DNA from: Haplodiscus bocki
Taxonomy: Eukaryota
Direction of reading: 5' to 3'
NCBI GenBank assembly: GCA_965655095.1
Contig: OZ296655.1
Location: 39,494,001 to 39,558,000, forward strand
Length of the DNA: 64,000 nucleotides
In this document: piece after piece, positions 1 through 26,788 of the stretch
Numbering within the stretch: the stretch's first letter is position 1
How the letters are laid out: the number at the start of each line of letters is the position of its first letter
Program-made: the position numbers and the translations under genes
The notes under the pieces: generated by a model
What the model saw: the letters and a program-made list of their open reading frames with translations, nothing else
What the model was told of the DNA's origin: nothing
Database searches by the model: none

Positions 1-3000
1 AAAAATTGCACATTTTACAAAGCTCAAATTCCTTCTAAGAACAAAGCATTAAAAAATCAAGTGTTTTAAAACAAAGCAGAGATAAGAATATTTGTTTTTG
101 TTAAACTGAAAGAAAAGGTTGTTTACGTTTAATAAAGGGGTAATTACGCTTGTTGATTTCTGTTATGAAAATCATGTTTTGTTAGTTAAATCAAAAGGTT
201 AATTTAGGTTACTTGATTCATTGTCTGAATTCAACAGAGCTCAAAAGAGTGAACTGGAGTATTGGATTCCCCTTGAACTTACTCCAAATTGTACGGCCTA
301 GCTGTTATATTGCTTGCATTTGTTAGAAAATGATGACCAAAAACGTAATTGTCTACACCTCCAGTAAGTGAACGTTGAGGTCCTATATTGGAACACTGCT
401 CATTTATTGTTGTAAGCAATTCTTTTTAAAAAAAGGGCATAAAAAATGCATGTGCTTTAACAAAGCGTTGATAAGAAATTTTGAATTCCGATAAACTGAA
501 AAGAAGGGTATTTCCGTTTATGAAAGTTGTGAATAATTTTGTTACGAAAACCTCGTTTGAATATTTGAAGATTGATGTTAATTGAAGGTACTTGATTCAT
601 TCTTTCGATTCAATCGGAGAGAAAAAATTGAACTAGATATTGGAATAATTTTTATTCTAGTTGAATTTGTACGGCTTAGCCCTTATTTTGTTCCCTTTTG
701 CGGAAAATTGCGCCCCGGAAAGGTAATTGTCTGAAAGACCATTAGGTCAATGTTGACATCCTGTTCGAAAAAAAGCAAACTTTTGAATACTCAAATTGCG
801 ACTCAAAGAAAGGCAAAAAAACTGGAATGTGTTCTATTAAATCAGTGAAAAGAAGTTTTGACTATGCTAAACTGAAGAAAACGAGTGATTACGTTTTATT
901 AAACGTCATTTACGTTTAATTAAACTCGTTGTTAAAATCAAGTTTCGCTAATTAAAGTTATTGTTCTTTGAGGTATCTTGATCCATTGTCTGGAGTCAAA
1001 GATTTGAAAATAAAGAACTCGAATGCATGAAAATTTTTGCATTCACTTCAATTTGTGCTGCCTACCCGTTAAACTGCTCTTTTTGTGAAATCTTGAACCC
1101 CGCAAAGGTAATTGTCTACAGGTCCTTTAGTTCAACATTGAGGTCTTATAAAGAAAATTTGCACACTTTACAAGGCTCAAATTCCTGCTAAAAACAATGC
1201 AAAATAAAAAGAAAGTGATTTAAAACAAAGCAGAGATAAAAAGATTTGATTTTGTTAAACTGAAAGAAAAGGTTGTTTACATTTAATAAAACGGTAATTA
1301 CGCTTGTTGATTTTTGTTATGAAAATTACGTTTTGTTAGTTAAATCAAAAGGTTAATTTAGGTTACTTGATTTTTTGTCTGAATTCAATAGAGCTCAAAA
1401 AAGTGAGCTGCAGTATCGGATTCCCCTTTAATGTACTCCAAATTGTACGGCCTAGCTGTTATATTGTTTGCACTTGTTAGAAAATGATCACCAAAAATGT
1501 AATTAACTACACCTCCAGTAAGTGAACATTGAGCTCCTATATTGGAACACTGCTCACTTAAAAATGTTAACAAAATTTTTTCTGAAAAAAAGGCATAAGG
1601 AATGCATGCGTTTTAACAGATATTGATAAAAAATTTCAATTCCGATGAACTGAAAAGAAGGGTAGTTCTGTGTATGAAAGTGGTGAAAAATTTTTTTACG
1701 AAAACCTCGTTTGAATAATTGAATATTGATGTTAATTGAAGGCACTTGATTCCATGCTTCAATTCAACCGTAGAGAAAAAAATGAACTAGACTTTGAATA
1801 ATTTTAATTTTAGTTCAATTTGTACGGCCTAATCGTTATTATAATCCCTTCTGCGGAAAAATGCGCCCGGAAAAGTAATTGTCTGAAAGACCATTAGGTC
1901 AATGTTGACATCCTATTGGAAAAATTGCAAACTTTTGAAAACTCAAATTGCGACTGAAAGAAGGACAAAAAACTGAAATGTGTTCTATTAAAGCAGTGAG
2001 AATTATTGACTATGCTAAACTGAAGGAAACGAAGGGTTACGTTTTTTTAAACGTTTTTTACGTTTAATTGAACTCGTTGTTAAAATCACGTTTCGTTAAT
2101 TAGAGCTAATGTTCTTTAAGGTATCTTGATCCATTGTCTGGAGTCAATGATTAGAAAATAGAGAAATAGATTTCATGAATAATTTCCATTCACTTCTCAA
2201 TGTGCTGCCTAGCCGTTAAACTGCTCCTTTTTGTGAAATCTTGAACCCCGCAAATGTAATTCTCTACAGTTCCTTTAGTTCATCATTGAGGTCCTATAAA
2301 GAAAAATTGCACATTTTACAAAGCTCAAATTCCTTCTAAGAACAAAGCAGTAAAAAATCAATTGTTTTAAAACAAAGCAGAGATAAGAATATTTGTTTTT
2401 GTTAAACTGAAAGAAAAGGTTGTTTACGTTTAATAAAGGGGTAATTACGCTTGTTGATTTCTGTTATGAAAATCATGTTTTGTTAGTTAAATCAAAAGGT
2501 TAATTTAGGTTACTTGATTCATTGTCTGAATTCAACAGAGCTCAAAAGAGTGAACTGGAGTATTGGATTCCCCTTGAACTTACTCCAAATTGTACGGCCT
2601 AGCTGTTATATTGCTTGCATTTGTTAGAAAATGATGACCAAAAACGTAATTGTCTACACCTCCAGTAAGTGAACGTTGAGGTCCTATATTGGAACACTGC
2701 TCATTTATTGTTGTAAGCAATTCTTTTTAAAAAAAGGGCATAAAAAAATGCATGTGCTTTAACAAAGCGTTGATAAGAAATTTTGAATTCCGATAAACTG
2801 AAAAGAAGGGTATTTCCGTTTATGAAAGTTGTGAATAATTTTGTTACGAAAACCTCGTTTGAATATTTGAAGATTGATGTTAATTGAAGGTACTTGATTC
2901 ATTCTTTCGATTCAATCGGAGAGAAAAAATTGAACTAGATTTTGGAATAATTTTTATTCTAGTTGAATTTGTACGGCTTAGCCCTTATTTTGTTCCCTTT

Positions 3001-5950
3001 TGCGGAAAATTGCGCCCCGGAAATGTAATTGTCTGAAAGACCATTAGGTCAATGTTGACATCCTATTTGAAAAAAAACAAACTTCTGAAAACTCAAATTG
3101 CGACTGAAAGAAGGGCACAAAAAACTGAAGTGTGTTTTATTAAAGCAGTGAAAAAAAGTAATGACTGTGCTAAACTGAAGGAAACGAGTGATTACGTTTT
3201 ATTAAAAGTTTTTTACGTTTAATTATACTCGTTGTTAAAATCACGTTTCGTTAAAAAAAGCTAAATGTTCTTCGACGTATCTTGATCCAGTGTCTGGAGT
3301 CAATGATTTGAAAAAAAATGAGCTCGAATTCATGAATTTTTTCCATTCATTTCAATTTTGCTGCCTAGCCGTTAAACTGCTCCTTTTTGTGGAATCTTGA
3401 ACCACGCAAATATAATTGTCTACAGGTCCTTTAGTGCAACTTTTAGTTCAGCTTTCAACCCGCAAATGTAAATGTATACAGGTCCATCAGGTTAACATTG
3501 AGGTCCTGGATGAAGAAAATTTACACTCTAAAAGACTCAACTTGCTGCTGGAAGAAGGGCATAGAAAAAAAAAGCAAGTGTAATAAAAAAGCAGAGAGAA
3601 GAAGATTTGATTTTGTTAAACTGAAAAAAAGGGTAGTTCTGTGTATGAAAGTGGTGAAAAATTTTTTTACGAAAACCTCGTTTGAATAATTGAATATTGA
3701 TGTTAATTGAAGGCACTTGATTCCATGCTTCAATTCAACCGTAGAGAAAAAATGAACTAGACTTTTGAATAATTTTAATTTTAGTTCAATTTGTACGGCC
3801 TAATCGTTATTATAATCCCTTCTGCGGAAAAATGCGCCCGGAAAAGTAATTGTCTGAAAAACCATTAGGTCAATGTTGACATCCTATTGGAAAAATTGCA
3901 AACTTTTGAAAACTCAAATTGCGACTCAAAGAAGGGCAAAAAACTGAAATGTGTTCTATTAAAGCAGTGAGAAGTATTGACTATGCTAAACTGAAGGAAA
4001 CGAAGGGTTACGTTTTTTTAAACGTTTTTTACGTTTAATTGAACTCGTTGTTAAAATCACGTTTCGTTAATTAGAGCTAATGTTCTTTAAGGTATCTTGA
4101 TCCATTGTCTGGAGTCAATGATTAGAAAATAGAGAAATAGATTTCATGAATAATTTCCATTCACTTCTCAATGTGCTGCCTAGCCGTTAAACTGCTCCCT
4201 CTTGTGAAATCTTGAACCCCGCAAATGTAATTCTCTACAGTTCCTTTAGTTCATCATTGAGGTCCTATAAAGAAAAATTGCACATTTTACAAAGCTCAAA
4301 TTCCTTCTAAAAACAAAGCATTAAAAAATCAAGTGTTTTAAAACAAAGCAGAGATAAGAATATTTGTTTTTGTTAAACTGAAAGAAAAGGTTGTTTACGT
4401 TTAATAAAGGGGTAATTACGCTTGTTGATTTCTGTTATGAAAATCATGTTTTGTTAGTTAAATCAAAAGGTTAATTTAGGTTACTTGATTCATTGTCTGA
4501 ATTCAACAGAGCTCAAAAGAGTGAACTGGAGTATTGGATTCCCCTTGAACTTACTCCAAATTGTACGGCCTAGCTGTTATATTGCTTGCATTTGTTAGAA
4601 AATGATGACCAAAAACGTAATTGTCTACACCTCCAGTAAGTGAACGTTGAGGTCCTATATTGGAACACTGCTCATTTATTGTTGTAAGCAATTCTTTTTA
4701 AAAAAAGGGCATAAAAAATGCATGTGCTTTAACAAAGCGTTGATAAGAAATTTTGAATTCCGATAAACTGAAAAGAAGGGTATTTCCGTTTATGAAAGTT
4801 GTGAATAATTTTGTTACGAAAACCTCGTTTGAATATTTGAAGATTGATGTTAATTGAAGGTACTTGATTCATTCTTTCGATTCAATCGGAGAGAAAAAAT
4901 TGAACTAGATTTTGGAATAATTTTTATTCTAGTTGAATTTGTACGGCTTAGCCCTTATTTTGTTCCCTTTTGCGGAAAATTGCGCCCCGGAAATGTAATT
5001 GTCTGAAAGACCATTAGGTCAATGTTGACATCCTATTTGAAAAAAACAAACTTCTGAAAACTCAAATTGCGACTGAAAGAAGGGCACAAAAAACTGAAGT
5101 GTGTTTTATTAAAGCAGTGAAAAAAAGTAATGACTGTGCTAAACTGAAGGAAACGAGTGATTACGTTTTATTAAAAGTTTTTTACGTTTAATTATACTCG
5201 TTGTTAAAATCACGTTTCGTTAAAAAAAGCTAAATGTTCTTCGACGTATCTTGATCCAGTGTCTGGAGTCAATGATTTGAAAAAAAAGAGCTCGAATTCA
5301 TGAATTTTTTCCATTCATTTCAATTTTGCTGCCTAGCCGTTAAACTGCTCCTTTTTGTGGAATCTTGAACAACGCAAATATAATTGTCTACAGGTCCTTT
5401 AGTGCAACTTTTAGTTCAGCTTTCAACCCGCAAATGTAAATGTATACAGGTCCATCAGGTTAACATTGAGGTCCTAAATGAAGAAAATTTACACTCTAAA
5501 AGACTCAACTTGCTGCTGGAAGAAGGGCATAGAAAAAAAGCAAGTGTAATAAAAAAGCAGAGAGAAGAAGATTTGATTTTGTTAAACTGAAAAAAAGGGT
5601 TGTTTACCTTAAATGAAGGGGTATTTGCGTTTAATGAATTTTCTTATGAAAATCTTGTTTTTTTAAAAGCACCATGTTATTTAGGATACTTGATTCTTTG
5701 TTTGATTTCAATGGGACTGAATAAAAATGAACTGGAGCTTTGGATTCCTTCTGAATTTACTTCAAACTTTACGGCCTAGCAAATATAATGCTCCCATTCC
5801 TTAAATAATGATCACCAAAAATGTAATTGTCCACAGGTCCAGTAGGTTAACGTTGAGGTCCCATATAGAAACACTGCACATTTATTGTTGTAAATATTAT
5901 TGGACTAGGGCCATAGAAGAAAGTGCATGTGTTTTATCAGAGCAAGGATA
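1..5950. repeat. Tandem satellite array, ~375-390 bp diverged monomers with higher-order structure
   Basis: The motif GTAATTGTCT(A/G) recurs at ~346, 723, 1108, 1499, 1876, 2256, 2646, 3025, 3412 etc. The block starting at position 1 recurs near-identically at 2302 and 4273, and ~1660-3630 is near-identical to ~3631-5600. The array runs off the left edge. Confidence 0.95.
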
Positions 5951-5959
5951 GGAATTTTT

Positions 5960-7773
5960 TTCTTTCGTTAAAGTGATAAAGAAATCCACAGTTGATGAGT
6001 TGGAATTGAGATCCGTGGCGGAAAATGACTGGAGTTTGGTACGCGTGGATGTGGCAAAAAGTACTGCGGAAAAGTTTTTTTTGGATGATTTTTTCGTAGT
6101 TGTTGAAACAGGGTAACCAAAAGTTTCATCGGAAATGTGAATTGTGGCTAAAACCAATCGGTATTAAAGGCACAAAGACACTGTCTTCTGGTTTCATGAA
6201 CTTCGAAAACTGTTCAAGTTATGGCGGTTGTCAAAGAAAGCAACGTAACGACAGATAACTCGAGACAATTGTTGAAGTTGCAAATTGTGCCGAAGACAGG
6301 GAAGCCATTTTGCGTGGTTTGGTAAGAGGTAGGGGCTGAAAGCGGTTTAACAGAGAAAACTCGTGCATGGGGTGACGTATGCGCAAATAACTGAAAAGAC
6401 AATAGAAGAGAAAGGGGCCACTAAGGCAAAATTACGGGAAATTTTTGACAAAAGTTGATTTCTGAGCTACTCCTCAGGTGACATCCCTAAAATTTAGGGG
6501 CCCTTTTAACGGGTCGTGCCAGGTCTCGCATAAAGCGGAACACACAGCGCGAAACTGGAGAAAGTAAGCTCGGATTTTGTCGATCAATAGCATCTTCTGA
6601 AACTAGGTTCCGACGTAGTTCCGCGAAAATGATTTTAACTGGCGGGTGCTGAAAATCACTGACAAGAAAAATATTGGGCGAGGGTCTTGGCCTAATGCTA
6701 AGAAAACATGAACTAGTTAAATTTCACTTTTAAATTTGAACTTGATCATTTTTAAACCACCATGCATTTGAAGCATCTCACTCCTGTCACCATTTTGAAA
6801 CAGTCATATGCATGAAAAGAGTTCTCTAGAAATTAGTTTTGGACGCATTGGACAACTGTTATTGTAAAGGGTACTCAGTAATTTCTCAAAGTACTATGTG
6901 AGTGATTATGCTTTTGGTGGTTGCTAGCGAGATATTTCAAGTGATGAGAAATGATTTTTGTTTTTTAAAAGAAAAAATTGAAGTACAATAAAAGAAAAAA
7001 CAAAATTTTTGTACTGTTGTAAAGACGCGTTACAAACATACATTTAGGTTTTTACTGACGGGGAAAGACGATTGTTTTTCGTCTCTGCAAAAAAAGGGCA
7101 ACGGTTTGCGGTCGAGTTTGTTGGATTGTTGTTGTTTGTTGATTGAACCCTCTGTTAGCTGGGTTGTCGTTGCCCCTTGAGTGTTGGTTTTCGTTGTTCG
7201 CAGTCTCGAGTGAAGTTTTTGATATTAGTAATGTTCTCAGGGCTATTCAAGATTTGCAAATCGGGTCACCACAGAAATATATAGTCAAAAAAACTTGGGC
7301 CTGTAGGGTCAAAGATCTGCACCAGGTTATAGGAAGCAAAAGAAGAATTGACCAGGCAACGTTAAATGTAGTGGGCGGAGAAAATAGTGGACAAAAAGCG
7401 GTCCCGAAATTTTTTCAAGTTGAAATGGTTCAATTGTTGAGTATATGAATGAATTGCACTCTAAAGTGTTCAAAGTGCTGTTGAAAGGAAGGCATAGAAA
7501 AAAAACCACGCAGTTTTAGAACCATGCAGTTTTAACAAAGCAGTGATAGGAATTATTGATTTTTTTAAACTGAAAGAAAGGGGTATTTATGTTTTTTAAA
7601 CGGGTATTTGCTTTTAGTGAATTTTGATATGGATGCAAGTTGTGTTATATAAAGTCGAAGCTTCTTGGGGGTACTTGATTCACTGTCTGAAATGAATGGG
7701 ACTGAAAGCAAGGGGACTGGAATTTTGTTTCATATTTAGTTTAGTTCAATTTGTACGGTCTAGCTGTTATACA
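5960..7773 (-). mobile_element. Partial LTR retrotransposon (5' LTR plus leader/ORF0) of a family related to element A
   Basis: Colinear similarity to ~19740-21339 (e.g. 6361 TCGTGCATGGGGTGACGTATGCGC vs 20090 TCGGGCATGGGGTGATGTATGCGC; 6850 GGACAACTGTTATTG vs 20555). Begins TGTATAACA on the minus strand at 7773. Possible PBS TGGCACGACCCG at 6521-6510. Confidence 0.75.
6214..6402 (-). pseudogene. ORF0 remnant (leader ORF upstream of gag), copy 2
   Basis: AHTSPHARVFS-x2-PLSAP-x2-Y-x-T-x-QN-x-FP is shared with 19862-20131, with many third-position synonymous differences. Confidence 0.6.
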
Positions 7774-9548
7774 TGATAACCCAAAAAAGCAAGTACAGGT
7801 AATTAATTTCTCCAACTTGTCCCAAGTTTGTCATAGAATATGTCTACTATAGCAGTAGTTCTCCAAAAATTGTTTTTTTTGCTAAAGTTTTTTTTGGTAG
7901 AATAGAGATGTCATTTTTTAAGTTTGTTATTTTGACACTTTGACAAAGTTTTCAATGTTTCCCTATAACGGATGGCGAAAATTATCCCAGAGTTTGCGGG
8001 GCTTTTGTATGACCTTCCTCTGAAAACATATGAACTTCTCTGTGAAGTATGTTCGCGAAGTCCAATCCCCTAGATGGATTCCACCTTCGGCTTATCATTT
8101 ACTTGTTGCTGATACAAAAGTAAGATATTTTTTTTCGTCTTTTTTGTTCGGAGGGAAATACGATAAACGTAGCATATTACTCAGCTGGAATATTATTTGA
8201 AAAAGTGAAAGTTTTGAAAAAAATTCATTGTAATTTCAAATACTTCAAACAAATTTCAATGTTTTCTGCTGCTGCTCATGTCACAACAACTCCTTTTCCA
8301 GATGCGTCGATGAAACGGTTCAAATTCTGAGAAGAGCTATGAGATCCGAATGTACCAGCTAAGACTAATATAACGAGACTTACAAAACCTTTAGTTAAGT
8401 AAATATGTAGTTTGGTACGAATTTTTATCTTACCGGAAAATATTTTTTTTGGATTTCTTGGTCATCTTACGTACGTAACCTGTCCACTTGAACCCTTTGG
8501 AAATGCATTCTTCAACTGTTATGTTACCACCAATTACCGCCAAATTGATGAGTTTCTTAACCCCTGAAACCCACTCAGTCAAAGCTAATAGTGCACAATT
8601 TGTGAAATTCAAGCAAAAAGCTGAAAATTGTTCTCGTAGATTACATTTGTAGGAGCTGATATCTGTCGTAACAATTCCATTGAGCGCGAAATATTTCTAA
8701 GTTCCCTAACTTCCGAAAATGAATTCCCCAAGATACTTCCTAACGGACCGCACGTGATCTCAACTCAATCCTCCCAAAGATGGTATCCTACGAAGGACTT
8801 GCACGACAATCTTCAAATTTGACACATATATACTGCAGAACTAGAACTGACGATTTATTGATACACCGAGGCTCTAAGATGTCTTGGCGCCAAGCAACTA
8901 TCACTTGGCGCTAAACTGCTATTAGAGACCAGAAACAACGCATCGTACAGATGCCGGGAACTCAATCTTTGGGACTGTTTGGCACCTAGGGGTACTTTTT
9001 TTAGAAGGCCTGCAAGTGAAAAATCTTGTATGACGTTTTCAGCTTAGGTCATTTGTAGCGTCGAGTTTGAAAGAGAACAGGATTGACCTTGATCATGCAA
9101 ATATCAAGGACGACCAAAAGTGCCATTTAAATTCCACGGTAAGTTGCTCTATAGAAAGTAAATAGTTGCATGCATGAAAAGAAACTCAGACCTAGACCAA
9201 AGCGAAATTATAGTTCAGAAGGATTAAAATTGAAGCGAGTGAGTTGCTTTTGTGAAGCCTATTTCACAGTTTCTCGGACGAATCGTTGTAGCTTGAGGAG
9301 TTGATTCGAGATTTGTGTTTCATACAAAAAACTGCCGATCCACCTGCGTTGTTATTATGTTATTACTGGAGGTTCACCATACCGGAAAGCATCTAATTGG
9401 TTTAACTTATTCGATCAATTAATCAGAGTTTGGACTTATTACAGATTTTTCCATCAAATGAGTGGAGCCGAAATTGCATGAAGTGGACAGAATTAGAGCA
9501 GATTATCAACTTGCTACTCAACATGCCTATCAACTAAGAACCTTAGTT

Positions 9549-10383
9549 CTGTAACAGTCGTATGCTTTTAGAACAGATCACTAGAAAAGAATTTTGGATG
9601 CGGAGGACGCCTGTTATTGGAAAGGGTACTCAGCAATTTCTAAAATTACTAATTAAGTGTTTTTAGTTTGGTGGTTAATAGCGGGATATCTCAAGTGAAT
9701 GAAAAATGGTTTTGGCTTTTTAGGGAAAAAATAAAATACAAAAAGAGAAACGGGAAGAAAACAAAAACTTTTAGAGTGAAAATTTTGGGATACAAAACTT
9801 ACATAGCTTCCGAGCTCTTTTTGGTGACGGTTGAAGGGTCTTCTTGTTGAGTTGCGGAGGCGAGATTGTTTTCTTCGGAAACTGGTTTTCTAGTTGAGTT
9901 GCTTTTGCGATTGTTAGATTGGAAATTTTTTTAGAAAATCTTTGTAAAAATGTCGAGAGTCTAATGACTGTCAGGGAAAACGTCGGGTCAGTTTTGACTT
10001 CAGTAACAATTTTAATTTCAAGTTACACAGCAGAGAAAATTTTACGACTGCATATAAATGTTGCATACGGTAGACAAAAGGGTTTCAGAAATGGTAAGTG
10101 TGTGTAAAATGCACACTAAAATGTTATAGAGAAAAGTTATTGTTCGTAGGCAGAGAGAGTGCAAAGAGTATTGTATGTATTAAACAGCAGTGATAACAGG
10201 ATTATGTGTTTTGTGAAAGTAGGCTGTGTTTACTAAGAGCACTCGAGGGTTTCTCGAGGGTACTTGACTTACTGGCTTTAAATTTGGTTCAAGTTACTGA
10301 AAGAAAAAATAGTTCAAGTTGTAAAAGAAAAATTGAGCAAAAATTAGGAAGGAAAAATTAAGCTTCAAGTTTTTAGTGTTACA
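9549..10383 (-). repeat. Element A 3' LTR (distal end truncated)
   Basis: Aligns to ~20500-21339 (about 85-90% by eye). Starts TGTAACAC at 10383 on the minus strand, directly after the PPT. Confidence 0.9.
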
Positions 10384-10396
10384 TTGCTCTCTTTTT
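10384..10396 (-). other. Polypurine tract of element A
   Basis: Minus-strand AAAAAGAGAGCAA lies immediately 5' of the 3' LTR TG. Confidence 0.75.
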
Positions 10397-10629
10397 AGAA
10401 GATTTGCGATCCGCAAAAATATTGACATTACAGATCCATTAAGTCATTAAGTTGTTGGAGGAATGGGTCGCATCGTGAGCATGTACGGAGACCATTGTTG
10501 TTTCGTGTGACACCGGGCAGACCACAGCGGCTATAGATGGGTCGTGGATTCTTGTTAAGTAGAATACTTTTCGCAAGGGCTACCAATGGCACGTGTTGAC
10601 TAGTTGTCGATGGTACAGAAAGGTTTTTA

Positions 10630-11352
10630 TCAGGGTGGAGCTCCTGTAATAGACAGCAGAAATCCTTTTCTGCAGGATTTCTTGGGACGAACTAGGGGCA
10701 CAACCAAGCTTGCGGAAGAAGAGATGATGAGGAGCGGTATTAGCATGTTGTTAGCGGCAGCTGCTGGGTGTGACCAAAAGCATCCGTTGAAGAACTGGGA
10801 GGTGACTATGGACAGAGGTGACGGCTGTGAGGCTAAAACATTTTCAGTGAGTCCGAAGGTACACTTCAAAAGAGATTCATTCTCAGAAGTCAGGGTAGCA
10901 ATTTGTTGTGTTAAGTCATTGCTTTGTTTCTCAAAGTAATCACTTTTTAGAATTTCCTCGAAAAGTTAATGAAAGGCTGCATGGGCGGCTGTTTTCGTTT
11001 CCTCGAACCGCTCTTGGATTTTAGTCACTGAATCGAATTCCGGGTGCTTGTAGGTGACATACAGTGGAATTTTGCAAGGGCAGTTGTCAGTTGTTTCGTC
11101 AACAAAAATTTCGGCGTCCCCAGTAGGTGTTGGGAGTAAACAGAAGGCTGCGGAGTATCTCATGAAACTACGTTGGTTGGCGTTAGCATCTATTCTTCGG
11201 AAAACCACAACGCCAGAATGGATAAAACTTCGTAACTTGCGATATTCCCATTCATCAAGGACATGAATTACATCACCAGGAGTGGTGATAGAATTCTTGC
11301 CACTGCAAGTGTACTTGGTGAAACCAGTTGGGCGCATTGAGGGAAACCTCAC
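10630..11352 (-). pseudogene. Orphan accessory ORF after env (~240 codons, central coiled coil)
   Basis: ORFs 10966-11352 and 10630-10869 are in one frame separated by a single stop. The intervening frame reads LFEEILKSDYFEKQSNDLTQQIATLTSENESLLK (heptad-like). Confidence 0.55.
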
Positions 11353-11789
11353 ACAAAAATATGATCAGAACATTTTAAAATCAAACGAGGAAAAAGAAAA
11401 AGGGGAAGAAACGGGACCCGGGTTGTTTACGTTTTTTTGTGCGTGTATATTCATTCACAGTGCGTGTTTATGGACACGTATACTATCAAAGCTGAAATCA
11501 TTGGACAACGGAGACATGGTCTCACGTTTTTTGTTTTTCTTTCGTTTTGAAGGGTCAGAGCAAAGTCTGAGCAAAAGTTGGGCACGGACACGTGCACGAC
11601 GGGCCAACAAAAGCTGGGAAGGTATGGAAACGTGCATTAGAGCAGGCACGGAAAAATGCAAGAGAAGACCAACATCTGAATCTAGGTAAGCTAATTACGG
11701 AACCGTACCGAAGGGGGCACGAAAATGCAAGGCAGTCTTCAAATGTATTTTACGGATGAATTAGAAACAAAAAATATTCAAGAATTTAG

Positions 11790-14096
11790 TCAAGATGTTG
11801 TATATTCGGCATAGAGCGGGGCTGCAAAGTCTGGATTAACACGGGTAGGGACTTGTGGGGCATTGCAGGTAGTTTTTGATTTCGTATTGTGGGGCGAGTA
11901 ATTCAGGGTTTTACTAGCCAGTGTTTTTGATGCGTTGAATTCCTCCAAACTGAGCTGAATGAAAGCAGACGCGTCATCAGTGGCTGTGTCTGGAGTTTCA
12001 TCACTGTTCGTGACATGCAAGATTTGTCCATTTGTACTTTTGAAGAACTTGTCTGGAAGAAAGAATAGTCTTTTCGTTGGCAGTGGAACAAGGTAAACTC
12101 ATGGTAGCAGTCAAAGAAGAAAAGGTAACCGAAACATTCGAGAACAAAACGGCGGTACGAAAAAGGAGACAAAGCTTGAGGGCTTGTGATGTTGCCGGAA
12201 AATTGACGAATAATATTGTGCAATCGAATGTGTTAATTGATCGATTGAATCAACTGAACTGCGTCGCACGTCCGGAAGTTCTGCCAATTCCATGCGAACA
12301 CTGCTGAGGACGCAATGACGTGCTCCACTCAACGGAAAAGCGTTAAAGATATGCTCGGGTTGTGGGATATGTTTGAAGACTTGTTCTAATGATGAGATCA
12401 GTTCAATCATTGCAAAGAAGGGCTCTAGGCTGGTCGAGCAGTAGTCCATATCCGATTCAAGAACCAGATTTTTTTGATTCAGGGTTAGGGTAAGGTGGCA
12501 ACTGGGCCTCAAAGTGCAGGCTTGACAAAGAATAATCGACACACTTACGCCATTGATATCACTGCCGTTTTTCATGTGAACAATTGGTTCGCGGTTACTA
12601 ACATGGTACCACCTTACAGCCAAATAAAGGGCTTGTGGCAAAGCTTCAGGTAAAAACACAGAAGTGGCGGGGCACTTTCGCAATGCCGGGATGGCGTAAT
12701 CGAACATCAGTGATCTCAGGCATAGGAGGGTGTCATCAGTTGTGGTTGAGAAACCGTTGCGACATTCTGATACGCTTGTTGCCTGAATAATGTTGTAATG
12801 TGAACCTATCTAAGTCAGCGTATCGAGAATCTTCATGGGCCACGGCCAAGAAAGGCTTTGACAGCTACAACAAGCGGGCTGTCTTGTTGTCAACGTTTGG
12901 CTGATACAGCGGAGTAGCAAGGTACACGTTGAAAGCGGAAGACTTGGAGTTCATTGAAACACCAAGCACAACTTATATAACGTGCAAGATTAACTTGACT
13001 TCTAAAACGTGTTGAATCTCATAATAGATAATTTCGAAGCCAGGATGTATGGCGGGCGTAAATTTTGTACCACTGTAACTCTCTTCTTTCGACAGTGTTC
13101 GAACAATGTCAGCATTTTGCTGGGATAGGAGGAACTGAGGGTTGACTTGCCCACTGTTAAGGGACAAAATTGGCCAGAACAAGTTAAAAGTGCAGGCGTA
13201 GAACGCAGCTTGGTTTGATTTTATGTGAGTGTGAAGAGTACCCAATTGTGAGATGACATATCTAATCTCTTGGGCGAAAAGAGAATGTTTCGTTTGTTTC
13301 TCGGTGCATTCTTTGTACAACGTTAATTCTACTTGAAATAAGGTAAATTTTTCATTAAAGGTCTGCAAGTGGTCTTGTACCGCATCTCGGTGGTTTTTCG
13401 CATTCTCCTGAGATAGAGGGACTTCATTTCCCAGAAGGAAGAAGTCCTCACCGTTGGATGACTGGACACGTTGCATGGTCGCTGATGTTTCTATTTTCGT
13501 CTGAAGAATATCTTCTACATCCTTAGCTAAACTGCTTGTGTCATCGCAAAAAAGAGTAATCGAGACAACTGCACCAAGAGCAGCTGTTGGGCCAATGAAT
13601 CGTTTAGAACGTGGAAGCGTCGCCACACCCTCTTGATACTTTTTGGGAGAATTTATTGCATTACATCAGCAAACTTTTTTTGTTCCTCAGTAGCGTGACT
13701 CATTTTGACCTTGATCAAGTTAACGCCATCTTTCAACTGTGTCATTAAAATTCGCAACCTTTCATCATTCATGGTGTAGTCGCGGTAGGCCTGCGAGTAC
13801 AATCCAGCGACACCAAGGACTCGTGTCTTGGTTTGGTTCAGCAACTCTTCAGCTCCACTTAGATTAACATCTGGTACTTTTGGGTACGGGGAGAACACTC
13901 GAAATTTGCTCTCACTTTCGGAATTGACTGCTTGATATTCAAAGAGGAAGGCAACGCCTTTTGTGAAGACTGGAACTTCTGGCTGATCGTTGAGATTAGT
14001 CGAGTAGTGGGTCACAGTGTGACAAGGAGGTGGGCCGTTGAGAAGGACAAAACAAAATAGAAGGGGAAGCTTGAAGGAGGAATAAAAGGGGTTCAA
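11790..14096 (-). pseudogene. env: env-like class I fusion glycoprotein (errantivirus/F-protein-like), frameshifted
   Basis: N-terminal signal peptide (FKLPLLFCFVLLNG), furin site RSKR (13611-13600) followed by the hydrophobic fusion peptide FIGPTAALGAVVSITLF, a heptad region, a Cys-rich segment (ILCQACTLRPSC), a hydrophobic TM near 12190-12080 and a cytoplasmic tail to 11790. Confidence 0.8.
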
Positions 14097-14277
14097 GGCG
14101 TTAAATTACCGTTCTGAAAGAGTAAAAATTTATGAAGAGGGTGAACTTATCTTCTTCGAGTTGGCGGAGGAGTTAAACCCACTCAAGTCAGGAGGTAGTT
14201 TTGATTTCCAAAGCGGTTGGACTTTGCGTTGCATTGTACACTTACGCAGGTTACGTTGAGGTGGGCTGGTGAAGCAA

Positions 14278-15860
14278 CTACTGCTTCACCGAATTGAAGG
14301 GTACGAGAGGTGTTGTCAATGACTTCGCGGAACCATGGTTTTGGTGGCACAGATGACGATGTGGAGGAACTATTGGGAAGACTCTGTGAAAGTCCCGGTG
14401 ATTCCACGAAAAATGTCGGTGGTTGGGGCGTAGGTGTGCTTGAACGGAAAGAAGTTGATGCTCTTGGCGTGCCGGGAGACCCGTGGTTACCGATGCAGGA
14501 GTAGCAGACGGAATTGTACATGCAAGGCCGCGAGAACAAGTAGTTGCTGACTGGACGGTATGGTTTGGATAATGCCAGGTGCATTGATCATGATTAGACG
14601 CAGGAACTATTTGTTGTTGTTGCTGAAATTTTGGAGGAAATATGTTGTCCTGGTTCCGCTTGTCGCGCATAGAGAAGTTCGAGGTCGGTGGGGGTTCATG
14701 GAAAAGCTTCAGACGATCACTAAAGACCACAAGTTCCCTTTGAGTTGCAATTTCTTTAATACGGTAGATCACATCCATGAGGCATTGTAAAATGAAATAC
14801 GGGCCTTTCCATAGGCTATAGAGCTTCAGTGATATACCAACTGGAACGACAGGGTTATGTAGTAGGAAATTTTGATTGACTTGATAAGTGTACCCATGGA
14901 CCTTTCGGTTGAAATGTGCATTTCTCCGTCACTGACTGAAATTCAGGGCTGTACGAGCCGAATCGCACGCTTTTTGAAATATCACTTGTCGGACAGACAC
15001 GTACTCATGCATGTCTGTTAGAGGTTGATCAGTCGGGTCTGGTTACATGAAATTTATAGGAAGACAAACCTTTTGTCCATAGACATGAAAATGTGGGGTA
15101 TACTCTGTGGATTCATGAACCGAGGTACGATATACCACCGTGACATACGGTAACTGTTCTGACCAGTTGCTTTGTTCATCGTTAATGCATTTGGCAAGCA
15201 TCATTTGCAACGTCCGGTTCATCACTTCCACGACTGCGTTTAACTGGGGTCGGCAGGCTGTTGTTCGGGTTTTGTTAACTTCCAGGGCGAGATTCAGACT
15301 TTTGAAAAGTTTTGATTCAAAACTACGATCCGGCTCGCTATGGATGTTGTGGGGGATCCAAATCGACATATCCAATTTTCAAGAAGTGATGTAGCTGTTG
15401 CAGAAGCAGTTTGATCGGGAAGTGGAATCGCTTCCTACCACTTCGCGAAATGATCGCCAATTAGAAGTATGTGTTGGTTACCGTTCGACAATGGTAACTG
15501 ACCCATGAAAGTGATGCTGATATGACGAAATAGGTAGCTTGGGGTCCAATCGACCAAAAAATGTCGATGAGTTTTGGGTGGGTTGGCTTCTTTCTGGCAT
15601 TGTTCACAACGATTGATGCAATAAATTCACAACTTCTTGGACGCCAGGCCAGTAGAAACGTTCACAAGCCTTCTCTACAGTCTTGCATTTTCCTAGGTGA
15701 TCTCCAGTGGTCGATGAGTGGATTGAATTCAGGACTTGGGGTAATAATGACGCAGGTATGAATTGTTGAATGTACGATGGACGTCCTTTGTGGGCGAATT
15801 CTCTACATGAAACGTCGTTGATGATCTTTAGACTTCGGAAAAGGTTGATCAATGGCCATG
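14278..15860 (-). pseudogene. Element A integrase (HHCC, catalytic core, C-terminal region)
   Basis: IHSSTTGDHLG..TVEKACERFYWPG; IPHNIHSEPDRSFES..KTRTTACRPQLNAVVEVMNRTL..WSEQLPYV..YRTSVHESTEYTP. Confidence 0.92.
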
Positions 15861-16066
15861 TTGCTCGTAGCAGTCCTTATAATTTTTGGGTTTTCGATGG
15901 TGTAACGCGTATGACCCGTTGAAAAAGGTTCATCAATGCTGGTTTGGCTCAATGTGCCGACGCGAGTGAAGTCAACGTTTCGGAATCACTAAGAGTCTCT
16001 GCTGCGACTAAGATATCCATGGAATCAAATGAGTCTTTAGTTGCGCGTGGCGGTTCTTTGGAAAGC

Positions 16067-16475
16067 TTTAGAAACACGAAATATTCTATGTTGGGAGGCC
16101 GGAAAACTTTTTGAATCAATGATCGAACTTGACTCCAATCAAGTTTATCGAGGCCATAACCTATCTGTGAATGCTCATTCGCAAAACATTGTTGCCTTCA
16201 GCGTGGCTCTTCATTGCCTCTAGAGATAATCTCGATGCTTTTTACGTAGGTTTATGGAAAAAACGTACTTTTGTTATTAAATGACAGGAAAAACGTTGCC
16301 ATTCGAAGATCCATTGTAGCCAAATGTTTTCGCTAGCAATGGCTTCTTCGTCGGGGTACAGCGTTGGAATGCGTCTCTTAATGCTTCCAGCAATTCCTGC
16401 TCCTAGCTTGAAGTCAGCTGAAATACAGTGAGCAATGTAGTCAGTTGAATACACTACATCGCCTATGATCCCCAA
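16067..16475 (-). pseudogene. OARD1/TARG1-type macrodomain in element A pol, between the RNase H remnant and integrase
   Basis: GDVVYSTDYIAHCISADFKLGAGIA..HLITKVRFFHKPT*KASRLSLEAMKSHA..(frameshift)IGYGLDKLDWSQVRSLIQKVF matches the TARG1 pattern AHCISEDCRMGAGIA..LITK..HKPTY..SLEAMKSH..IGCGLDRLQW. Confidence 0.9.
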
Positions 16476-16529
16476 ATTTTGGAGATGTTTGTGGTCGGGT
16501 GGATTTTCATTCGTACGGTTGGGCCATTC

Positions 16530-18260
16530 CTAGTTATTTTCAGGCGCTTCTTCTACCGGGTCTTCAGTTACAGTTGATTGAAATGCTCCAAGAGGTGTTC
16601 GGGATAAACCATCGGCTTGGCCAATCGATTTTCTGGGAAAATACACTACCTCGTGGTCGAAGGCGGCAAGTTTCTCAAACGATTTTAGTTCGGGCGGATT
16701 TGTTGGAATGGGAAACCTTTTTGAATCTTTAATGACATTGGCCTGCAATCCGTTTTTGCTGATGATCGGACCAACAAAAGGGGCACGAGTTTGGAAAGTT
16801 TCACAAGTTGTCGGATTTTTTTTGAGATTCGGAGAGCGAAAACTTTTAAGAACTTCTTTTAGTCTTTGAATGTGTTCTTCACCCGTGGAAGAGATGTTGA
16901 TGCAATCATCAAAACATGGGATGGATGTCTTCTAAGTCAGGCCATCCAGAACTTGTACTATCAAGCTTTGAAAAGTGGTTGGGCTACCAGTCAGTCCCAA
17001 AGGAAATGGGAGCCATTTGCAAGATCCGAAAGGTGTACTAAACGCTGTGAAATCTTGAATTTCCTCAGCAATTGGTGGCTGATGGAAACCCGAGGACGTA
17101 TCAATCGTGGTGGAGAGTTCACTTCCTTCTGAGAAGTCAAAGATTTCCTCTACGGATGGAATGGGCCAACAGAACTTGATGGTTTGTTTATTCAACTGAC
17201 GGAAGTCTACTGCTAGACGGAGTGTGCCGTTTTTATTTGGGAAGAGCCTGGCCGTTGAACTATGTGGGCTATGACAAGGCGTGATTTGCTTCTCTTTTAG
17301 AGAAGCATCGATTTTTTTCTTGTACGTTGTCCTATTAATGTAAGGGCATCCTCCAGTTGGGGAGCTTAATCGGTCACGATCCGGGTTCTACTTGAATCTT
17401 GCATCGCATTGGCGTATGTCCCATTCACTTTTCGAGATCACATTAGAAAACTCCTTGATTAGTTCAGACAACTTTACTTTTGCTTCCAGGGAAATACCGG
17501 TATCAATAAAATTTTTGAAAAATTTCAAATTGTTTTTGACATCCTTTTTGTCGGTTAATTTCTGGCTTTTACGATTTTTCAGTATACCAATGTTTTAGAT
17601 TATTTCCGTTTCGACTACTTCATATTGTCCCACTGTGGTATCTTTATGTATTATGACCGCTTCGTTTCCAGTATATGTTACCATCACCTGGCTTATTATC
17701 TCAGCAGAATTAAACAACACAAGGTCAGCACTGACCTCTTTGTCTGCTTTGAACCGTTCATGCGGTTCAAGTAAGGTTGCCAACTCTATTGTTTCACGAT
17801 TAGTCATGGGACGTGGGCTGCTATGATCATTGAATAACGGGCCGGGATCCAAACATTGCCCGTGGTGACAACTAGGAAGACGTGATCAGTTTGGATTGTA
17901 TAAACTTGGAGATACAATGGGACAAAAGTGTCATCATTCACTCGCATTTTTTTCAGAAACAGTGGATCACATTGGTGATTTTCCAAAAAATCAAGGCCTA
18001 TCAGACAATTGGCTTCCGATTTAGCCAAAACATGAAAAAGATGTTTAAACGTTTTTCCGCCTGAACATGGGGGAGGCGTACGATGAATTGCTTCTCAATG
18101 GGCAATTGATTTGCAACTTTCAGTTGTTTCAGTGCAGGTTCCAACTTCAAAGAAGGTTTCAATTTGAGGGAATCAAAGATTTTAAAACTAAGTCAGGACG
18201 AAAATGTTCCACTGTCTCATATCGTTTCGAACATGCAATCAAAGATTTTTATTCGAATAA
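16530..18260 (-). pseudogene. pol: Element A protease + RT (RT thumb and most of RNase H deleted near 16680)
   Basis: Protease xDSG (~18216-18208) and LIGLDFL; RT LRLAVDFRQLNKQT..WPIPSVEEIFD..IDTSSGFHQ..AFSTPFG..PLGLTGSPTTFQ..PCFDD. The junction ELKSF|EKLAAFDHEVVY..QADGLSR shows the deletion. Confidence 0.9.
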
Positions 18261-18363
18261 AAACACTTCGGTGATAAAAACAACGGAATTCAATGTTTCA
18301 AATTGTAGGCCTGGAGAGGTGCTTTTGTCGCCGCTTTGACCTTCTGGCGTAGACGTGTTTAGT

Positions 18364-19420
18364 TTATATTGTTGGGAAAGTTACTTCGGCACTCCTTGCG
18401 GAAGTTTCTAATCCTTTCACACATGAAACACGCTTTGCATTCGTTTGAGGTATGATTTTTGCGTTTACAAGGTTAGCAAGGTCCTCTGGAACTAATTTGG
18501 ATGCTTTTGGGAAGGTTAGGGATTGATTTTTGGCAGTTGAGTCCTCGCCGATTGTTGTCTTGGCGATTGTCATTTCCTCCTTCATTCGAATTATCTTGGA
18601 AACGGGCCGTTCTGGTTCCTCGCGCATTGGTGCTTTTGTATCGAGAACGCTGGTTGCGACATGGCGTACTGCTTCGCTGTCGGGAGATATCTTGGTTCGG
18701 CTTAAGCATGGCGTTCTTGAATTCATCCGTTGGCGTTCGATTAAACTCGTCCCCACACTCTTTGGTGGAAGGCCCAGGAGTTTCAAGGGAGATGGCGTTC
18801 ACGCTGATCTCGGCCATTTTGCTTGTTGATGGGGCTCCATTCTCGATTTCCACGAAAGAGTTCAAATCCATGGCTAGGGCTAGAGCATCATCAGCTGTAG
18901 CTGGTTTCGACTTTCTAAGTTCCCATCGAAGATTCGCATCGTTCAAGATTTCAAGGAAGCTAGTGAAAACAATCTGTTCGACCAAGTGGGGGAAGGCGCG
19001 ATAGACGCGTTGCGCAAAAGTTGGATCGTCACACAAGGAGGCAAACGTATCTTGATTGAGTTGCTGCCGGGCAGTTTTCAATCTTGCTTTCAATATGTCC
19101 ACATTCGTTGTATAGTCTTGCCGGAAGTCATCAACTAACACGTTGAAGTCAGCTTGTTGGGCTGCAGAAATCGTTGTGTAGAAACGCAGGGCATTTCATC
19201 TTAGCCGAAGAGCGGAATAATGTGACTTGTTGTCATGGGCCGGGCAAAGCCAACCAGGAAGTAACGCATCAGTGTTAAATTGCTGTAGGTAGTCCTCAAA
19301 GTCACCAAAACCGATGAAACTTTCTGGCACAAGGCATGAGGGCAAAGGAATTACAAAAGGGTCATCTCCGGGGCCAAAAGGTGCCGCAAAGGGCCTGCCA
19401 TGTGCGACGGTTGTCGACAT
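18364..19420 (-). pseudogene. gag: Element A gag
   Basis: LVPESFIGFGDFEDYLQQFN.. capsid-like N-terminus; two C-terminal CCHC-like knuckles (C*PCKRKNHTSNEC; CFMCERIRNFRKEC). Confidence 0.8.
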
Positions 19421-19861
19421 TATAAAAAACTCGAAAAAAAATCAGACTATTTCGAACTATTAGGGTCTGAGGTGTTCAGGTTGGGAGGGTCGGTTGCCTG
19501 GGTACACGATAGCAAGGGGTTCCGTAAAGTAGTGCGACAGAACTTCAACATGAGTTCTGCAGATTTGAGCTGGGACTGAGAAAAAAACTTCTTGTAAACT
19601 GAATGTGGTTTGGATGGTTCGTGTTAGGAAAAAAATGAACCAGTAGTTGCGTTTCCATGTGTTGGTGGTATTGATTTCCTTCAGGCCGATAATGAATACT
19701 CAATTAATGCTGTGAAATAGAAGATTCGGGCCAAGAAGTGATTGGGATTTGATGTGTGCCGACTTGGCAGAAATAGCAACGAATAAAGATTTCTTTAGGT
19801 AACCTGTTCTTGGTTGTTAACACAGAAAAACGAAAAGTTACATCGGAAACACAAATTCAAC

Positions 19862-20131
19862 TCAAAAAGTTTCTTTTGTTAACAAGTCGGCGTTTACTGC
19901 GGGAAAACACTTTTTTCTGGTTTCGTGAAAGTCGAAAGATAATCCAGATTCGGCAGCTATCAGTAGGAGTTGCGTGATGACAGTCAATGCACGAAAAAAG
20001 TTGAAAAAGTACTTTGTGTTATTGATAGGGAAGCGATTTTGCACGGTTCGGTACGCGGGTGGGGCTGAAAGAGGACTCATAGAAAAAACTCGGGCATGGG
20101 GTGATGTATGCGCACAGAATTGAACGGACAT
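19862..20131 (-). pseudogene. ORF0 upstream of gag (ATG-initiated MSVQFCAHTSPHARVFS...)
   Basis: Codon-level conservation with 6214-6402; lies between the 5' LTR and gag. Confidence 0.6.
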
Positions 20132-20220
20132 AAAAAAGAAAATGAGCTAAAAGCAAAAAAGAACGAAATATTTCAGAGAAACTGAAGTTTTTAGCAAGTA
20201 ATCACGTGAGGTCATTAAAA

Positions 20221-21339
20221 GGACTCGTATAAGGCGGCAAACATAGGACGAAGCTGGAGAAACTAGGCTCGGACAAGGTCCGGCGAGGACGATCTTAAAA
20301 AAACTAGACTCGGACGCATTCCGGTGAAAAGGATCTTAACTGGCGGGCACTCAAGTTCAGTGACAAGATAAACAGTGGGCAAAAGTCTGGGGCCAAAGCC
20401 AAGAAAAGGGAAAGCACTTCATTTTTATCGTTTTGAAAAATTGCTCACGGATCGTTTTTCAACCACCTTTCACGTGAGGTATCACACGCCAAGCAACACT
20501 TTGTAAGTCGTAGGTTTTCAAAACAGGTCGTTAGAAATGTATTTTGGTTGCGGAGGACAACTGTTATTGGAAATGGTACTCAGCATTTTCTAAAATTACT
20601 TTTTAGGTGTTTTTAGTTTGATGGTTGCTAGCAAGATATCTCAAGTGAATGAAAAATGTTTTTGGCTTCGTAGAAAAGATTTTATATTACAAAAAGAGAA
20701 AAGGAAAGAAAGAAAAAGAAAACGTTTTAAAAAGAATTTATTGGATTACAAAACTTACATAGCTTCAGAGTTCTTTTCGGGGACGGTTGAAGGCTCTTCT
20801 TGTTGAGTTGCGGAGGAGAGGTTGTTTTTTGTGGAAACTGGTCTTCTTGCTGAGGTGCTTTCAGGATTGTCTGATTGGATATTCTTTCAGAAATTCTTTG
20901 TAAAATTGTCGAGGGTCTAATGACTGTAAGGGCACGCGTCGGATCAGTTTTGACTTCAGTAACAATTTTAATTTTAAGTTACACAGCAGAGAAAATGTTA
21001 CGACTGCAAAGAAATGTTGCATACGGTAGACAAAAGGTTTTCAGAAATTTTAAGTGTGTGTAAAATGCACACTAAAAGGTTTTAGAGAGAAGTTATTGTA
21101 CGTAGGAAGAAAGATTAGAAAGAGTATTGTATATATTAAACAGCAGTGATAACAGGATTTTGTGTTTTGTGAAAGTAGGTTTCGTCTATTAAGAGCACTC
21201 CGGCGTTCCCGAGGGTACTTGACTCACTGGCTTCAACTTTGGTTCAAGTTACTGAAAGAAAAATTAGTTCAAGTTGTAAAAAAAAATTGAGAAAAAAAAT
21301 CAGAAAGAAAAATTAAGCTTTAAATTTTTAGATATTACA
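20221..21339 (-). repeat. Element A 5' LTR (inner boundary approximate)
   Basis: Starts TGTAATATC at 21339 on the minus strand; aligns to the 3' LTR and to 6522-7773. Confidence 0.85.
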
Positions 21340-26409: not shown

Positions 26410-26788
26410 TTTTTGTTCAGAAGGAGCTTACCTCTTACATCAGTGTTTTACAGTTGGATACTCCCATTAGCGTGGAATATAACGGTGTTGAGACTCCCAA
26501 ACATGCCACCTGACCAATCATAGATGACAAGGCATGAAAACATTAAAATTAATAAACATTATTTTTTTGAATGTTTTTCATGATTTTATATGTTACCTTC
26601 TTTTTGTTCAGAAGGAGCTTACCTCTTACATCAGTGTTTTACAGTTGGATACTCCCATTAGCGTGGAATATAACGGTGTTGAGACTCCCAAACATGCCAC
26701 CTGACCAATCATAGATGACAAGGCATGAAAACATTAAAATTAATAAACATTATTTTTTTGAATGTTTTTCATGATTTTATATGTTACC
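26410..26788. repeat. Exact tandem duplication, period 191 bp
   Basis: 26410-26597 repeats identically at 26601-26788. Confidence 0.95.

Follow-up and report, generated by a model that had tools for sequence, protein, structure and literature searches.

A tandem array in Haplodiscus bocki apparently derived from an LTR retrotransposon's PPT/U3 junction

A 64,000-nucleotide stretch of the Haplodiscus bocki genome (contig OZ296655.1, positions 39,494,001 to 39,558,000; below, the window) opens with a tandem array of ~380-bp monomers, each composed of ~60 bp of 3' internal retrotransposon DNA, a polypurine tract (PPT) and ~335 bp from the start of an LTR, in native register. The array appears to descend from an LTR retrotransposon, specifically from its PPT/U3 junction, and the direction from element to repeat is supported by the structural junction, LTR terminus to PPT and internal DNA, which the monomers keep in register. 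We put a probability of about 0.6 on the array being the amplified 3' end of a Gypsy-type element, B, now internally deleted, and on its being small, local and neutrally decaying. Here "U3" stands for the 5' third of the LTR, because the TATA-like hexamers seen near LTR position ~328 in a second element, A, and by eye in B, are too weak for locating the U3/R border.

The array (1-5985, minus strand in element sense) is open at the left end of the window and ends on the right at ~5976-5986 (breakpoint zone 5951-6006); the initial annotation had extended it to 7773. The same annotation had read the monomer as LTR U3 plus ~60-70 bp of internal sequence and PPT, and this composition is borne out by all 15 near-full monomers (370-391 bp). 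Each matches LTR B within 7435-7772 at 69-73% local identity, with scores of 107-229 that lie far above the maxima of 42-52 for dinucleotide-shuffled sequence (z 18.7-48.3), a comparison that had been proposed as a check on the match to LTR and PPT; each alignment stops at 7770-7772. Beyond this LTR terminus all 15 switch to a PPT and ~60 bp of 3' internal DNA as in element A. Their best match to the 3' internal region of A (10384-10520 offered) falls within 10384-10445 in 15/15, the individual matches being weak (z 0.9-6.2). When the tails were slid over 6001-64000 on both strands, the PPT window of A ranked first of 5792 for eight of the nine distinct tails and seventh for the ninth, a 56-bp unit; the summed tail score there was 289 against 129±13, the tails being related and hence not independent. 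A profile of eight monomers matches LTR B at E 2e-44 and crosses the U3/PPT/internal junction of A (10209-10445) at E 5.6e-6. The PPT-like tract that the monomers had been said to retain stands out in classes c and b (11 purines in 13 nt) and d (10/13) and has decayed in a, a' and b' (9/13); element A has 12/13. In size and layout the array resembles the tandem TRIM arrays of bivalves, in which a short LTR alternates with a short PBS-PPT domain, but it is very improbable that it is one: the monomers are without R-U5 and PBS, 30 of 32 comparisons with these falling within the shuffles and the two exceptions scoring 35-37 against 107-229 for U3.

Element A (9550-21339, minus strand) is a decayed Gypsy-type LTR element with RT and integrase C-terminal fragments. 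As in Ty3/Gypsy elements, RT (RVT_1, 16935-17387) is followed by integrase (Integrase_p58_C, 14281-14928), both on the minus strand, and LTRs and a PPT are present; an env-like stretch, judged by eye, is without a Pfam match. The 3' LTR (9550-10383, minus strand) is 86.7% identical to the second LTR (20502-21339), and next to it, at 10384-10445 on the same strand, lie the PPT and neighbouring 3' internal DNA homologous to the monomer tail. This 3' LTR is a relative of LTR B, 77-79% identical across the initial 200 bp at the U5 end and barely alignable in U3, where homology is still detectable (score 51 against 26±4 for shuffles, maximum 43). The monomers match the U3 of A at z -0.2 to 4.0 only, and A would be a more distant relative of the array than LTR B. 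The array had been described as lying beside its source, which would apply to LTR B, as a coeval sister copy, and not to A. It had also been asked whether the LTR might have captured an older satellite monomer. The U3 of B is indeed much nearer to the monomers than to the U3 of A, as capture would have it, but the exact register of monomer PPT and internal DNA with the LTR start of a separate element refutes this course of events, against which the homology of the B and A U3 regions and the monomer profile spanning the U3/PPT junction of A also speak; we give it next to no weight.

On the plus strand the monomers follow the order a b c a' b' c' a b c* (56) x c' a b c* (56) d e(partial), where (56) denotes an extra 56-bp copy of the internal tail without the LTR part (3438-3493, with its second copy at 5406-5461; here as below, minus strand). 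Classes are mutually 58-65% identical, trimer copies 73-90% and recent copies 99.3-99.6%; Tandem Repeats Finder did not detect the array because neighbouring monomers are <70% alike. Positions 1-2301 form a hexamer (a b c a' b' c') of two trimers that are 88.8% identical, and its a-b start is found again at 2302-3050 and 4273-5020 with 99.5-99.6% identity. A recent tandem duplication with a unit of 1971 bp occupies 1648-5589 (1648-3618 and 3619-5589), its copies being 99.3% identical, with 13 substitutions over 1965 aligned bases and seven gaps, mostly at homopolymers. Monomer x (3494-3871) is a hybrid, d supplying its left part and b' its right part, and is the crossover product of this duplication. 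At the right edge lie the divergent monomers d (73% identical to a) and partial e (77% to b), at 5462-5985, e ending abruptly in mid-U3. The head-to-tail copies with local homogenisation in trimer, hexamer and 1971-bp layers are those of an LTR-retrotransposon-derived tandem repeat; this trimer and higher-order organisation is absent from the initial annotation. The score of the 56-bp unit against the tails of c* and d was reached by 0 of 2000 shuffles. A second ~57-bp repeat in the 3' internal DNA of A was rejected as the source of this unit, equal scores being obtained by 286 and 1199 of 2000 shuffles.

Register with the monomers and A puts the start of LTR B (6796-7773, minus strand) at 7771; if the TG at 7773 is real, the LTR begins there. 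Its segment 7437-7771 is what recurs in the array. A primer-binding site (PBS) beginning TGG (6776-6793, minus strand) lies 2 bases past the LTR end and may resemble the 3' end of tRNA-Leu; no tRNA gene for comparison was found within the window. A 5' LTR and a PBS of a candidate non-autonomous element are present (6796-7771/3; 6776-6793). The initial annotation had suggested the 5' LTR, with a wrong boundary: it had drawn the LTR at 6522-7773, and 6522-6795 is PBS and leader. The 5' leader of B (5986-6775, minus strand) is 66% identical to that of A and is cut ~270 bp short of where the gag-like region of A starts, as read by eye. Array and B have the same orientation and directly adjoin. LTR B, at 58-68% identity, is as far from the monomers as these are from each other, which makes it a coeval sister copy and probably the 5' LTR of the deleted parent. 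The tree is nearly a star, with a branch of 0.25 for LTR B, internal branches of 0.02 (52% support) and 0.03 (74%), and uneven class branches of about 0.20-0.35 from the centre; such a tree, and equal identity of B to the monomers, are expected if the 5' LTR of B and the monomers began identical.

The junction between array and leader was followed in the contigs of X1-X3, which represent one sample, possibly the assembly's own source, and of X4, a second sample. A contig of 1329 bp (5571-6899, 0 differences) spans it in X1 and X2 and one of 808 bp in X3; the X4 contig extends past it by just 28-37 bases. At depths of 18.5, 46.1 and 34.4 in X1, X2 and X3, against 15.1, 39.3 and 31.5 for the flank, the junction contig is single copy, and no dispersed copies with the same junction were found at this depth in X1-X3, where copies <80% alike would escape. 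B-type U3 is rare, with a summed depth over 7395-7812 of 2-3.6x flank (X1-X3), compared with about 290-510x flank for the U5 end of A, and a chance adjacency of B and the array is therefore unlikely. The shared orientation, the abutting leader, the single-copy junction contig and the near-star tree make it probable that the array sits inside a defective element with LTR B as its 5' LTR; the closing 3' LTR and the target-site duplication would fall outside the window, and the former is hinted at, no more, by an unplaced single-copy contig that carries pieces of B-like U5 and d-like U3.

It is conceivable, at rather low probability, that the array came from another copy of the B family, elsewhere or earlier, and that the insertion of B in it or next to it, and then the truncation of B, came later. 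The identity of B to the monomers of merely 58-68%, the existence of other B-like LTR pieces and the good preservation, by eye, of its PBS and LTR end for such an age would fit this course, but the common orientation, a B branch as long as the monomer branches and the rarity of B-type as against A-type U3 argue for the parent reading. Moreover, the array stops in mid-monomer where it meets the leader, itself cut short of gag, and this has the appearance of a deletion junction, not of an integration end. An assembly artefact of array or junction has very little probability: the near-identity of the 1971-bp copies and the gaps at homopolymers could raise that suspicion, but the classes differ by 35-42%, contigs bridge the array edge, an exact b piece, present three times in the window, reaches 3.3x flank depth in X1, and the c'-a joint 2.3-2.5x in X2 and X3.

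In the history that we favour, a ~380-bp block would have been duplicated head to tail just upstream of the 3' LTR of B, about when B inserted, either in a single event of illegitimate DNA recombination or slippage or through nested insertion and deletion, with at least three copies (a/d, b and c) born almost together. That the trimer subsequently expanded by unequal exchange in rounds (73-77%, 84-90% and 99.3-99.6% identity) is visible in outline in the array, and the last round left hybrid monomer x; a deletion may then have taken gag-pol and part of one monomer, so that the leader of B came to abut the array. Microhomology is not significant at the monomer junction, where 48% of background windows score equally, or at the array edge (16%; an overlap is visible by eye only), and favours no particular mechanism for the first duplication.

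Alternatively, the first copies might have been made by reverse transcription, which we consider unlikely: U3, PPT and ~60 nt of internal RNA would have been copied with repeated template switches to U3 position ~335, and plus-strand priming at the last PPT would have yielded a normal 5' LTR and a multi-PPT array before the 3' LTR, an element that could have transposed together with its array. A single cycle of this kind would agree with a/d, b, c and LTR B having arisen almost at once, minus-strand transfer is followed first by copying of the very region that makes up the unit, and monomer variants not present in the window amount to about 4-7x flank depth in the contigs. Against this, junction microhomology does not exceed background, upstream of its PPT element A shows no partial copy of U3 (scores of 29-31, shuffle maxima 42-44), the array-leader junction is single copy, the PPTs of a, a' and b' are decayed and the later rounds are DNA-level exchanges. 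Somewhat less likely still is that reverse transcriptase itself wrote the founding trimer through repeated template switches, which would have set one internal-PPT-U3 block after another before the 3' LTR, with B as a fossil of a multi-PPT non-autonomous class; if so, tandem repeats would be seeded at insertion, and the same array would occur between LTRs at other loci of the genome. Of the repeated strand transfer or recombination at the PPT that had initially been invoked, strand transfer has no support: the monomers join ~60 bp upstream of the PPT without significant microhomology, and the hybrid monomer shows unequal exchange between DNA copies for later growth.

The array measures at least 6 kb within the window, and its summed contig depth of 11-30x flank in X1-X3, which is not a copy number, suggests a small array rather than a major satellite; "satellite", as it had been called, probably overstates its size. 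At least two further single-copy B-like LTR pieces occur among the contigs, and these and the extra monomer variants may stem from other loci. The decay of the array is probably neutral, and its explanation requires no function, of which there is no sign; nor is a centromeric or silencing role predicted. In the sets including B, invariant columns were no more clustered than under permutation or neutral simulation, and later substitutions do not spare conserved columns (pooled p 0.49). Two of 18 conservation tests gave p < 0.01 (adjacency among a, b and c, p 0.004; c vs c*, p 0.004) and one more p 0.04; overall, conserved motif blocks are not supported as a sign of function. Positions 1-7800 contain no ATG-initiated ORF of at least 60 aa, and 1-10500 have no Rfam match at E up to 1. 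A hammerhead or retrozyme was rejected, there being no Rfam match and only two occurrences of the core motif within 7.8 kb instead of one in each monomer.

The view that LTR-derived satellites are found mainly in plants, expressed in the initial annotation, overlooks rodent and fish cases. RPCS of Ctenomys rodents is a major satellite. According to the parts of the literature available to us, to which the comparisons below are limited, its 348-bp monomer combines LTR U3, described as similar to retroviral U3 (PMC3648361), with a polypurine tract (PMC3648361; PMC9659126; PMC6947457), and is thus an animal tandem repeat of ~350-bp units built like the present one. Unlike RPCS, the array described here adjoins a parent-type LTR, PBS and leader, its PPT/LTR register is fixed by a sister element, and it is apparently small, with trimer and hexamer order. 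MALREP of the eel Monopterus albus is listed as another animal satellite assigned to a Gypsy LTR (PMC9659126). CRM1TR and CRM4TR of maize are likewise locus-restricted arrays derived wholly from a Gypsy LTR/internal junction, proposed to result from illegitimate recombination with subsequent gene conversion or unequal exchange; as in our array, their junctions were without direct repeats (PMC3648361). They differ in covering the LTR-UTR junction, in their location in centromeric regions and in having one monomer end that varies inside the LTR (PMC3648361), whereas the unit here covers the 3' PPT-U3 junction without R-U5 and PBS. The 3'UTR-derived satellites of Ogre/Tat elements (PisTR-A, Lathyrus) resemble it in lying inside an LTR element near the 3' end and in their capacity for local expansion, but their monomers are 3'UTR repeats in many dispersed elements (PMC9659126; 10.1101/677575); here the monomer includes PPT and LTR sequence, and element A is without an array. 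Head-to-tail LTR and internal DNA with PPT, formed by recombination, is also seen in tandem-array TRIMs, which in bivalves have terminal repeats of 202-218 bp and an inner domain of 77-80 bp with PPT (PMC6934838), and in LTR-shared or internal-to-internal tandems of Drosophila (PMC5932611); TRIM arrays retain whole LTRs and PBS (PMC6934838), both of which are lacking in our monomers. An animal PPT-U3 array together with its parent was not encountered in our literature search, most subscription papers lying outside its coverage. The case shows with unusual readability how an animal transposon turned into a tandem repeat, with monomer ends placed to the base on the parent, a likely parent LTR that serves as internal clock, and three higher-order layers and a crossover product within 6 kb. 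It offers a good worked example of satellite birth outside plants without by itself changing existing knowledge: repeats of U3 plus PPT (RPCS) and of LTR junctions (CRM1TR) have already been described, and this array is a further example.

Self-alignment and k-mer periodicity place the tandem array between base 1 and about 5985 of the window, with periods near 380, 1150, 1970 and 2300, and not up to 7773 as the initial annotation had it; Tandem Repeats Finder, run on the window, left the array undetected. Cut at a common site, it yields 15 near-full monomers (370–391 bp), a single partial one (e) and two units of 56 bp, in the plus-strand order a b c a' b' c' a b c* [56] x c' a b c* [56] d e, where primes and the asterisk mark variants of a class. 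A search of positions 1–7800 for open reading frames found none of 60 aa.

All 15 near-full monomers align with the neighbouring LTR (LTR B) at 7435–7772, far beyond shuffled sequence (200 dinucleotide shuffles; z 18.7–48.3), and each of these alignments ends at the LTR terminus, 7770–7772. Immediately beyond it, the best match of each of the 15 is 10384–10445, where a second element, element A, has the polypurine tract (PPT) of its 3' LTR and the internal DNA next to it. Since single tail matches are weak (z 0.9–6.2), the nine distinct tails were slid across 6001–64000 on both strands: eight ranked this PPT window first of 5792, and the ninth, the 56-bp unit, ranked it 7th. A profile of eight monomers matches LTR B (E 2e-44) and spans the U3/PPT/internal junction of element A (10209–10445, E 5.6e-6), with nothing else in the window outside the array better than E 0.067. 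The tract itself retains 11 of 13 purines in c, c', c* and b, 10 in d, and 9 in a, a' and b'. The proposal that the monomer joins LTR U3 to PPT and internal DNA is thus borne out, and the register of the monomers at the LTR start fixes the direction, from element to repeat.

LTR B, the probable 5' LTR of a deleted parent element, lies at 6796–7771 (or 7773) and not, as first annotated, at 6522–7773. A TGG primer-binding site follows two bases on, and then a leader (5986–6775) 66% identical to that of element A. This leader breaks off at 5951–6006, abutting the middle of monomer e, about 270 bp ahead of the point corresponding to the start of the gag-like region of element A, as judged by eye; more than 9 kb would be missing if B was similar to A. 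Element A (9550–21339, minus strand) is a decayed Gypsy-type element with reverse transcriptase (RT) and integrase fragments and LTRs 86.7% identical. It is a relative and not the source of the array: the monomers scarcely match its U3 (z −0.2 to 4.0), although the U5 ends of B and A are 77–79% identical. LTR B (at 7771) and monomers a, a' and d begin with TA where element A begins with TG, which may reflect a non-canonical LTR start in the B lineage. The primer-binding site of element A (20470–20501) is collinear with that of B and lacks the TGG start; roughly one position in three differs between the two, which exceeds the expectation from the 13% LTR divergence of A. Element A also carries further ORF remnants beyond integrase (10700–14105, minus strand), one env-like by eye, three pieces of which gave no Pfam match.

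The anatomy of the array and its late exchanges can be read directly. In their U3 parts, classes a, b and c are 58–65% identical to one another and counterparts between trimers 84–90% (a-a' 90%, b-b' 84%, c-c' 87%), while at the array edge d is 73% identical to a, and e 77% to b. Three a-b copies are 99.5–99.6% identical, and 1648–3618 is duplicated as 3619–5589 at 99.3% identity. Monomer x, d on its left and b' on its right, is the product left by this duplication and the signature of unequal exchange. A tail was also duplicated, giving the 56-bp unit. LTR B shares 58–68% identity with the monomers, and the tree is near-star, with a branch of 0.25 for B and internal branches of 0.02 (52% support) and 0.03 (74%). 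The separation of a/d, b, c and LTR B was therefore roughly contemporaneous, and lies about three to five times further back than the insertion of element A (0.073 per LTR). This is as expected if the 5' LTR of B and the first monomers began identical. Tests for constraint on the monomers were mostly negative: pooled later substitutions hit conserved and variable columns equally (p 0.49), and block statistics stayed inside the range of neutral simulations; of 18 tests, two gave p<0.01.

The most likely origin, to which we give a probability of roughly 0.6, is an event at the DNA level. Near the time of insertion, a block of 60 bp internal DNA, the PPT and 335 bp of LTR would have been duplicated ahead of the 3' LTR of B, giving rise to a trimer that unequal exchange then enlarged, and the coding region of B would have been lost by deletion. 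A closing 3' LTR would be expected to resemble one single-copy, unplaceable contig, in which B-like U5 and U3 pieces are joined to a d-like piece. That B instead inserted later beside a pre-existing array appears unlikely. Writing of the first copies by RT template switching is equally doubtful: the repeat unit and the star tree are compatible with it, but junction microhomology is only at background, element A carries no such duplication and the array-leader junction is single copy, so that the repeated strand transfer at the PPT originally suggested finds no positive support. An array both written by RT and carried by dispersed elements is less probable still. A TRIM array, a retrozyme, satellite capture and an assembly artefact were each tested and are unlikely.

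Depth was taken from the contigs of a single study, in four sets (X1–X4) that represent two samples, X4 being the second. Contigs with zero differences span the array-leader junction at unique-flank depth (5571–6899 in X1 and X2, 5571–6379 in X3), though not as independent support, since X1–X3 may be the source of the assembly; the X4 piece extends only 28–37 bases past the junction. An exact b piece at 3.3 times flank depth in X1 agrees with the three copies in the window, and monomer variants not found in the window reach about 4–7 times flank depth. Summed depth across the array, which is not copy number, is 11–30 times flank in X1–X3, and the array does not look like a megabase satellite. 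The U3 of B stands at 2–3.6 times flank, against about 290–510 times at the U5 end of element A, and two single-copy contigs, the unplaceable one described above among them, hold B-like LTR pieces from elsewhere. Within the B leader, segment 6350–6395 has very high summed contig depth and is thus conserved across the abundant A family, possibly as a packaging or regulatory signal.

Elsewhere in the window, two 2.9-kb direct repeats (29588–32479 and 48204–51072, 74% identical) enclose about 16 kb that resembles decayed retroelement DNA and contains a MATH-domain ORF (32601–33236) and an integrase SH3-like piece (39914–40594); the whole is probably an LTR element of very large size that carries a MATH gene. 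A GC-rich LINE-like element with long ORFs and an (AAC)n tail (58931–63488, plus strand), which looks much younger than its surroundings, has a cysteine-rich first ORF and, judged by eye, endonuclease-, RT- and RNase H-like stretches. A TMEM94-like gene, divergent in sequence, has its C-terminal exon at 56325–56912 (minus strand); this shares 30–37% identity with the TMEM94 proteins of hemichordates, echinoderms, a cnidarian, a mollusc and insects, while the best database match reaches 54%, and it identifies the window as animal DNA. A near-perfect 191-bp tandem duplication (99% identical) lies at 26406–26788.

Related structures are described in the parts of the literature covered. CRM1TR and CRM4TR of maize are arrays from an LTR-UTR junction, and the 348-bp rodent satellite RPCS, cited in the same source (PMC3648361) and tabulated in PMC9659126 and PMC6947457, is U3-like with a polypurine tract. 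Eel MALREP is listed as derived from a Gypsy LTR (PMC9659126). Arrays expand locally within LTR elements in Lathyrus (10.1101/677575), tandem TRIMs occur in bivalves (PMC6934838), and internal-to-internal LTR tandems in Drosophila (PMC5932611). Within the literature covered, no animal case was met that combines the PPT-U3 register with an adjoining parent LTR. The array described here is a real and well-preserved example of an already known process.
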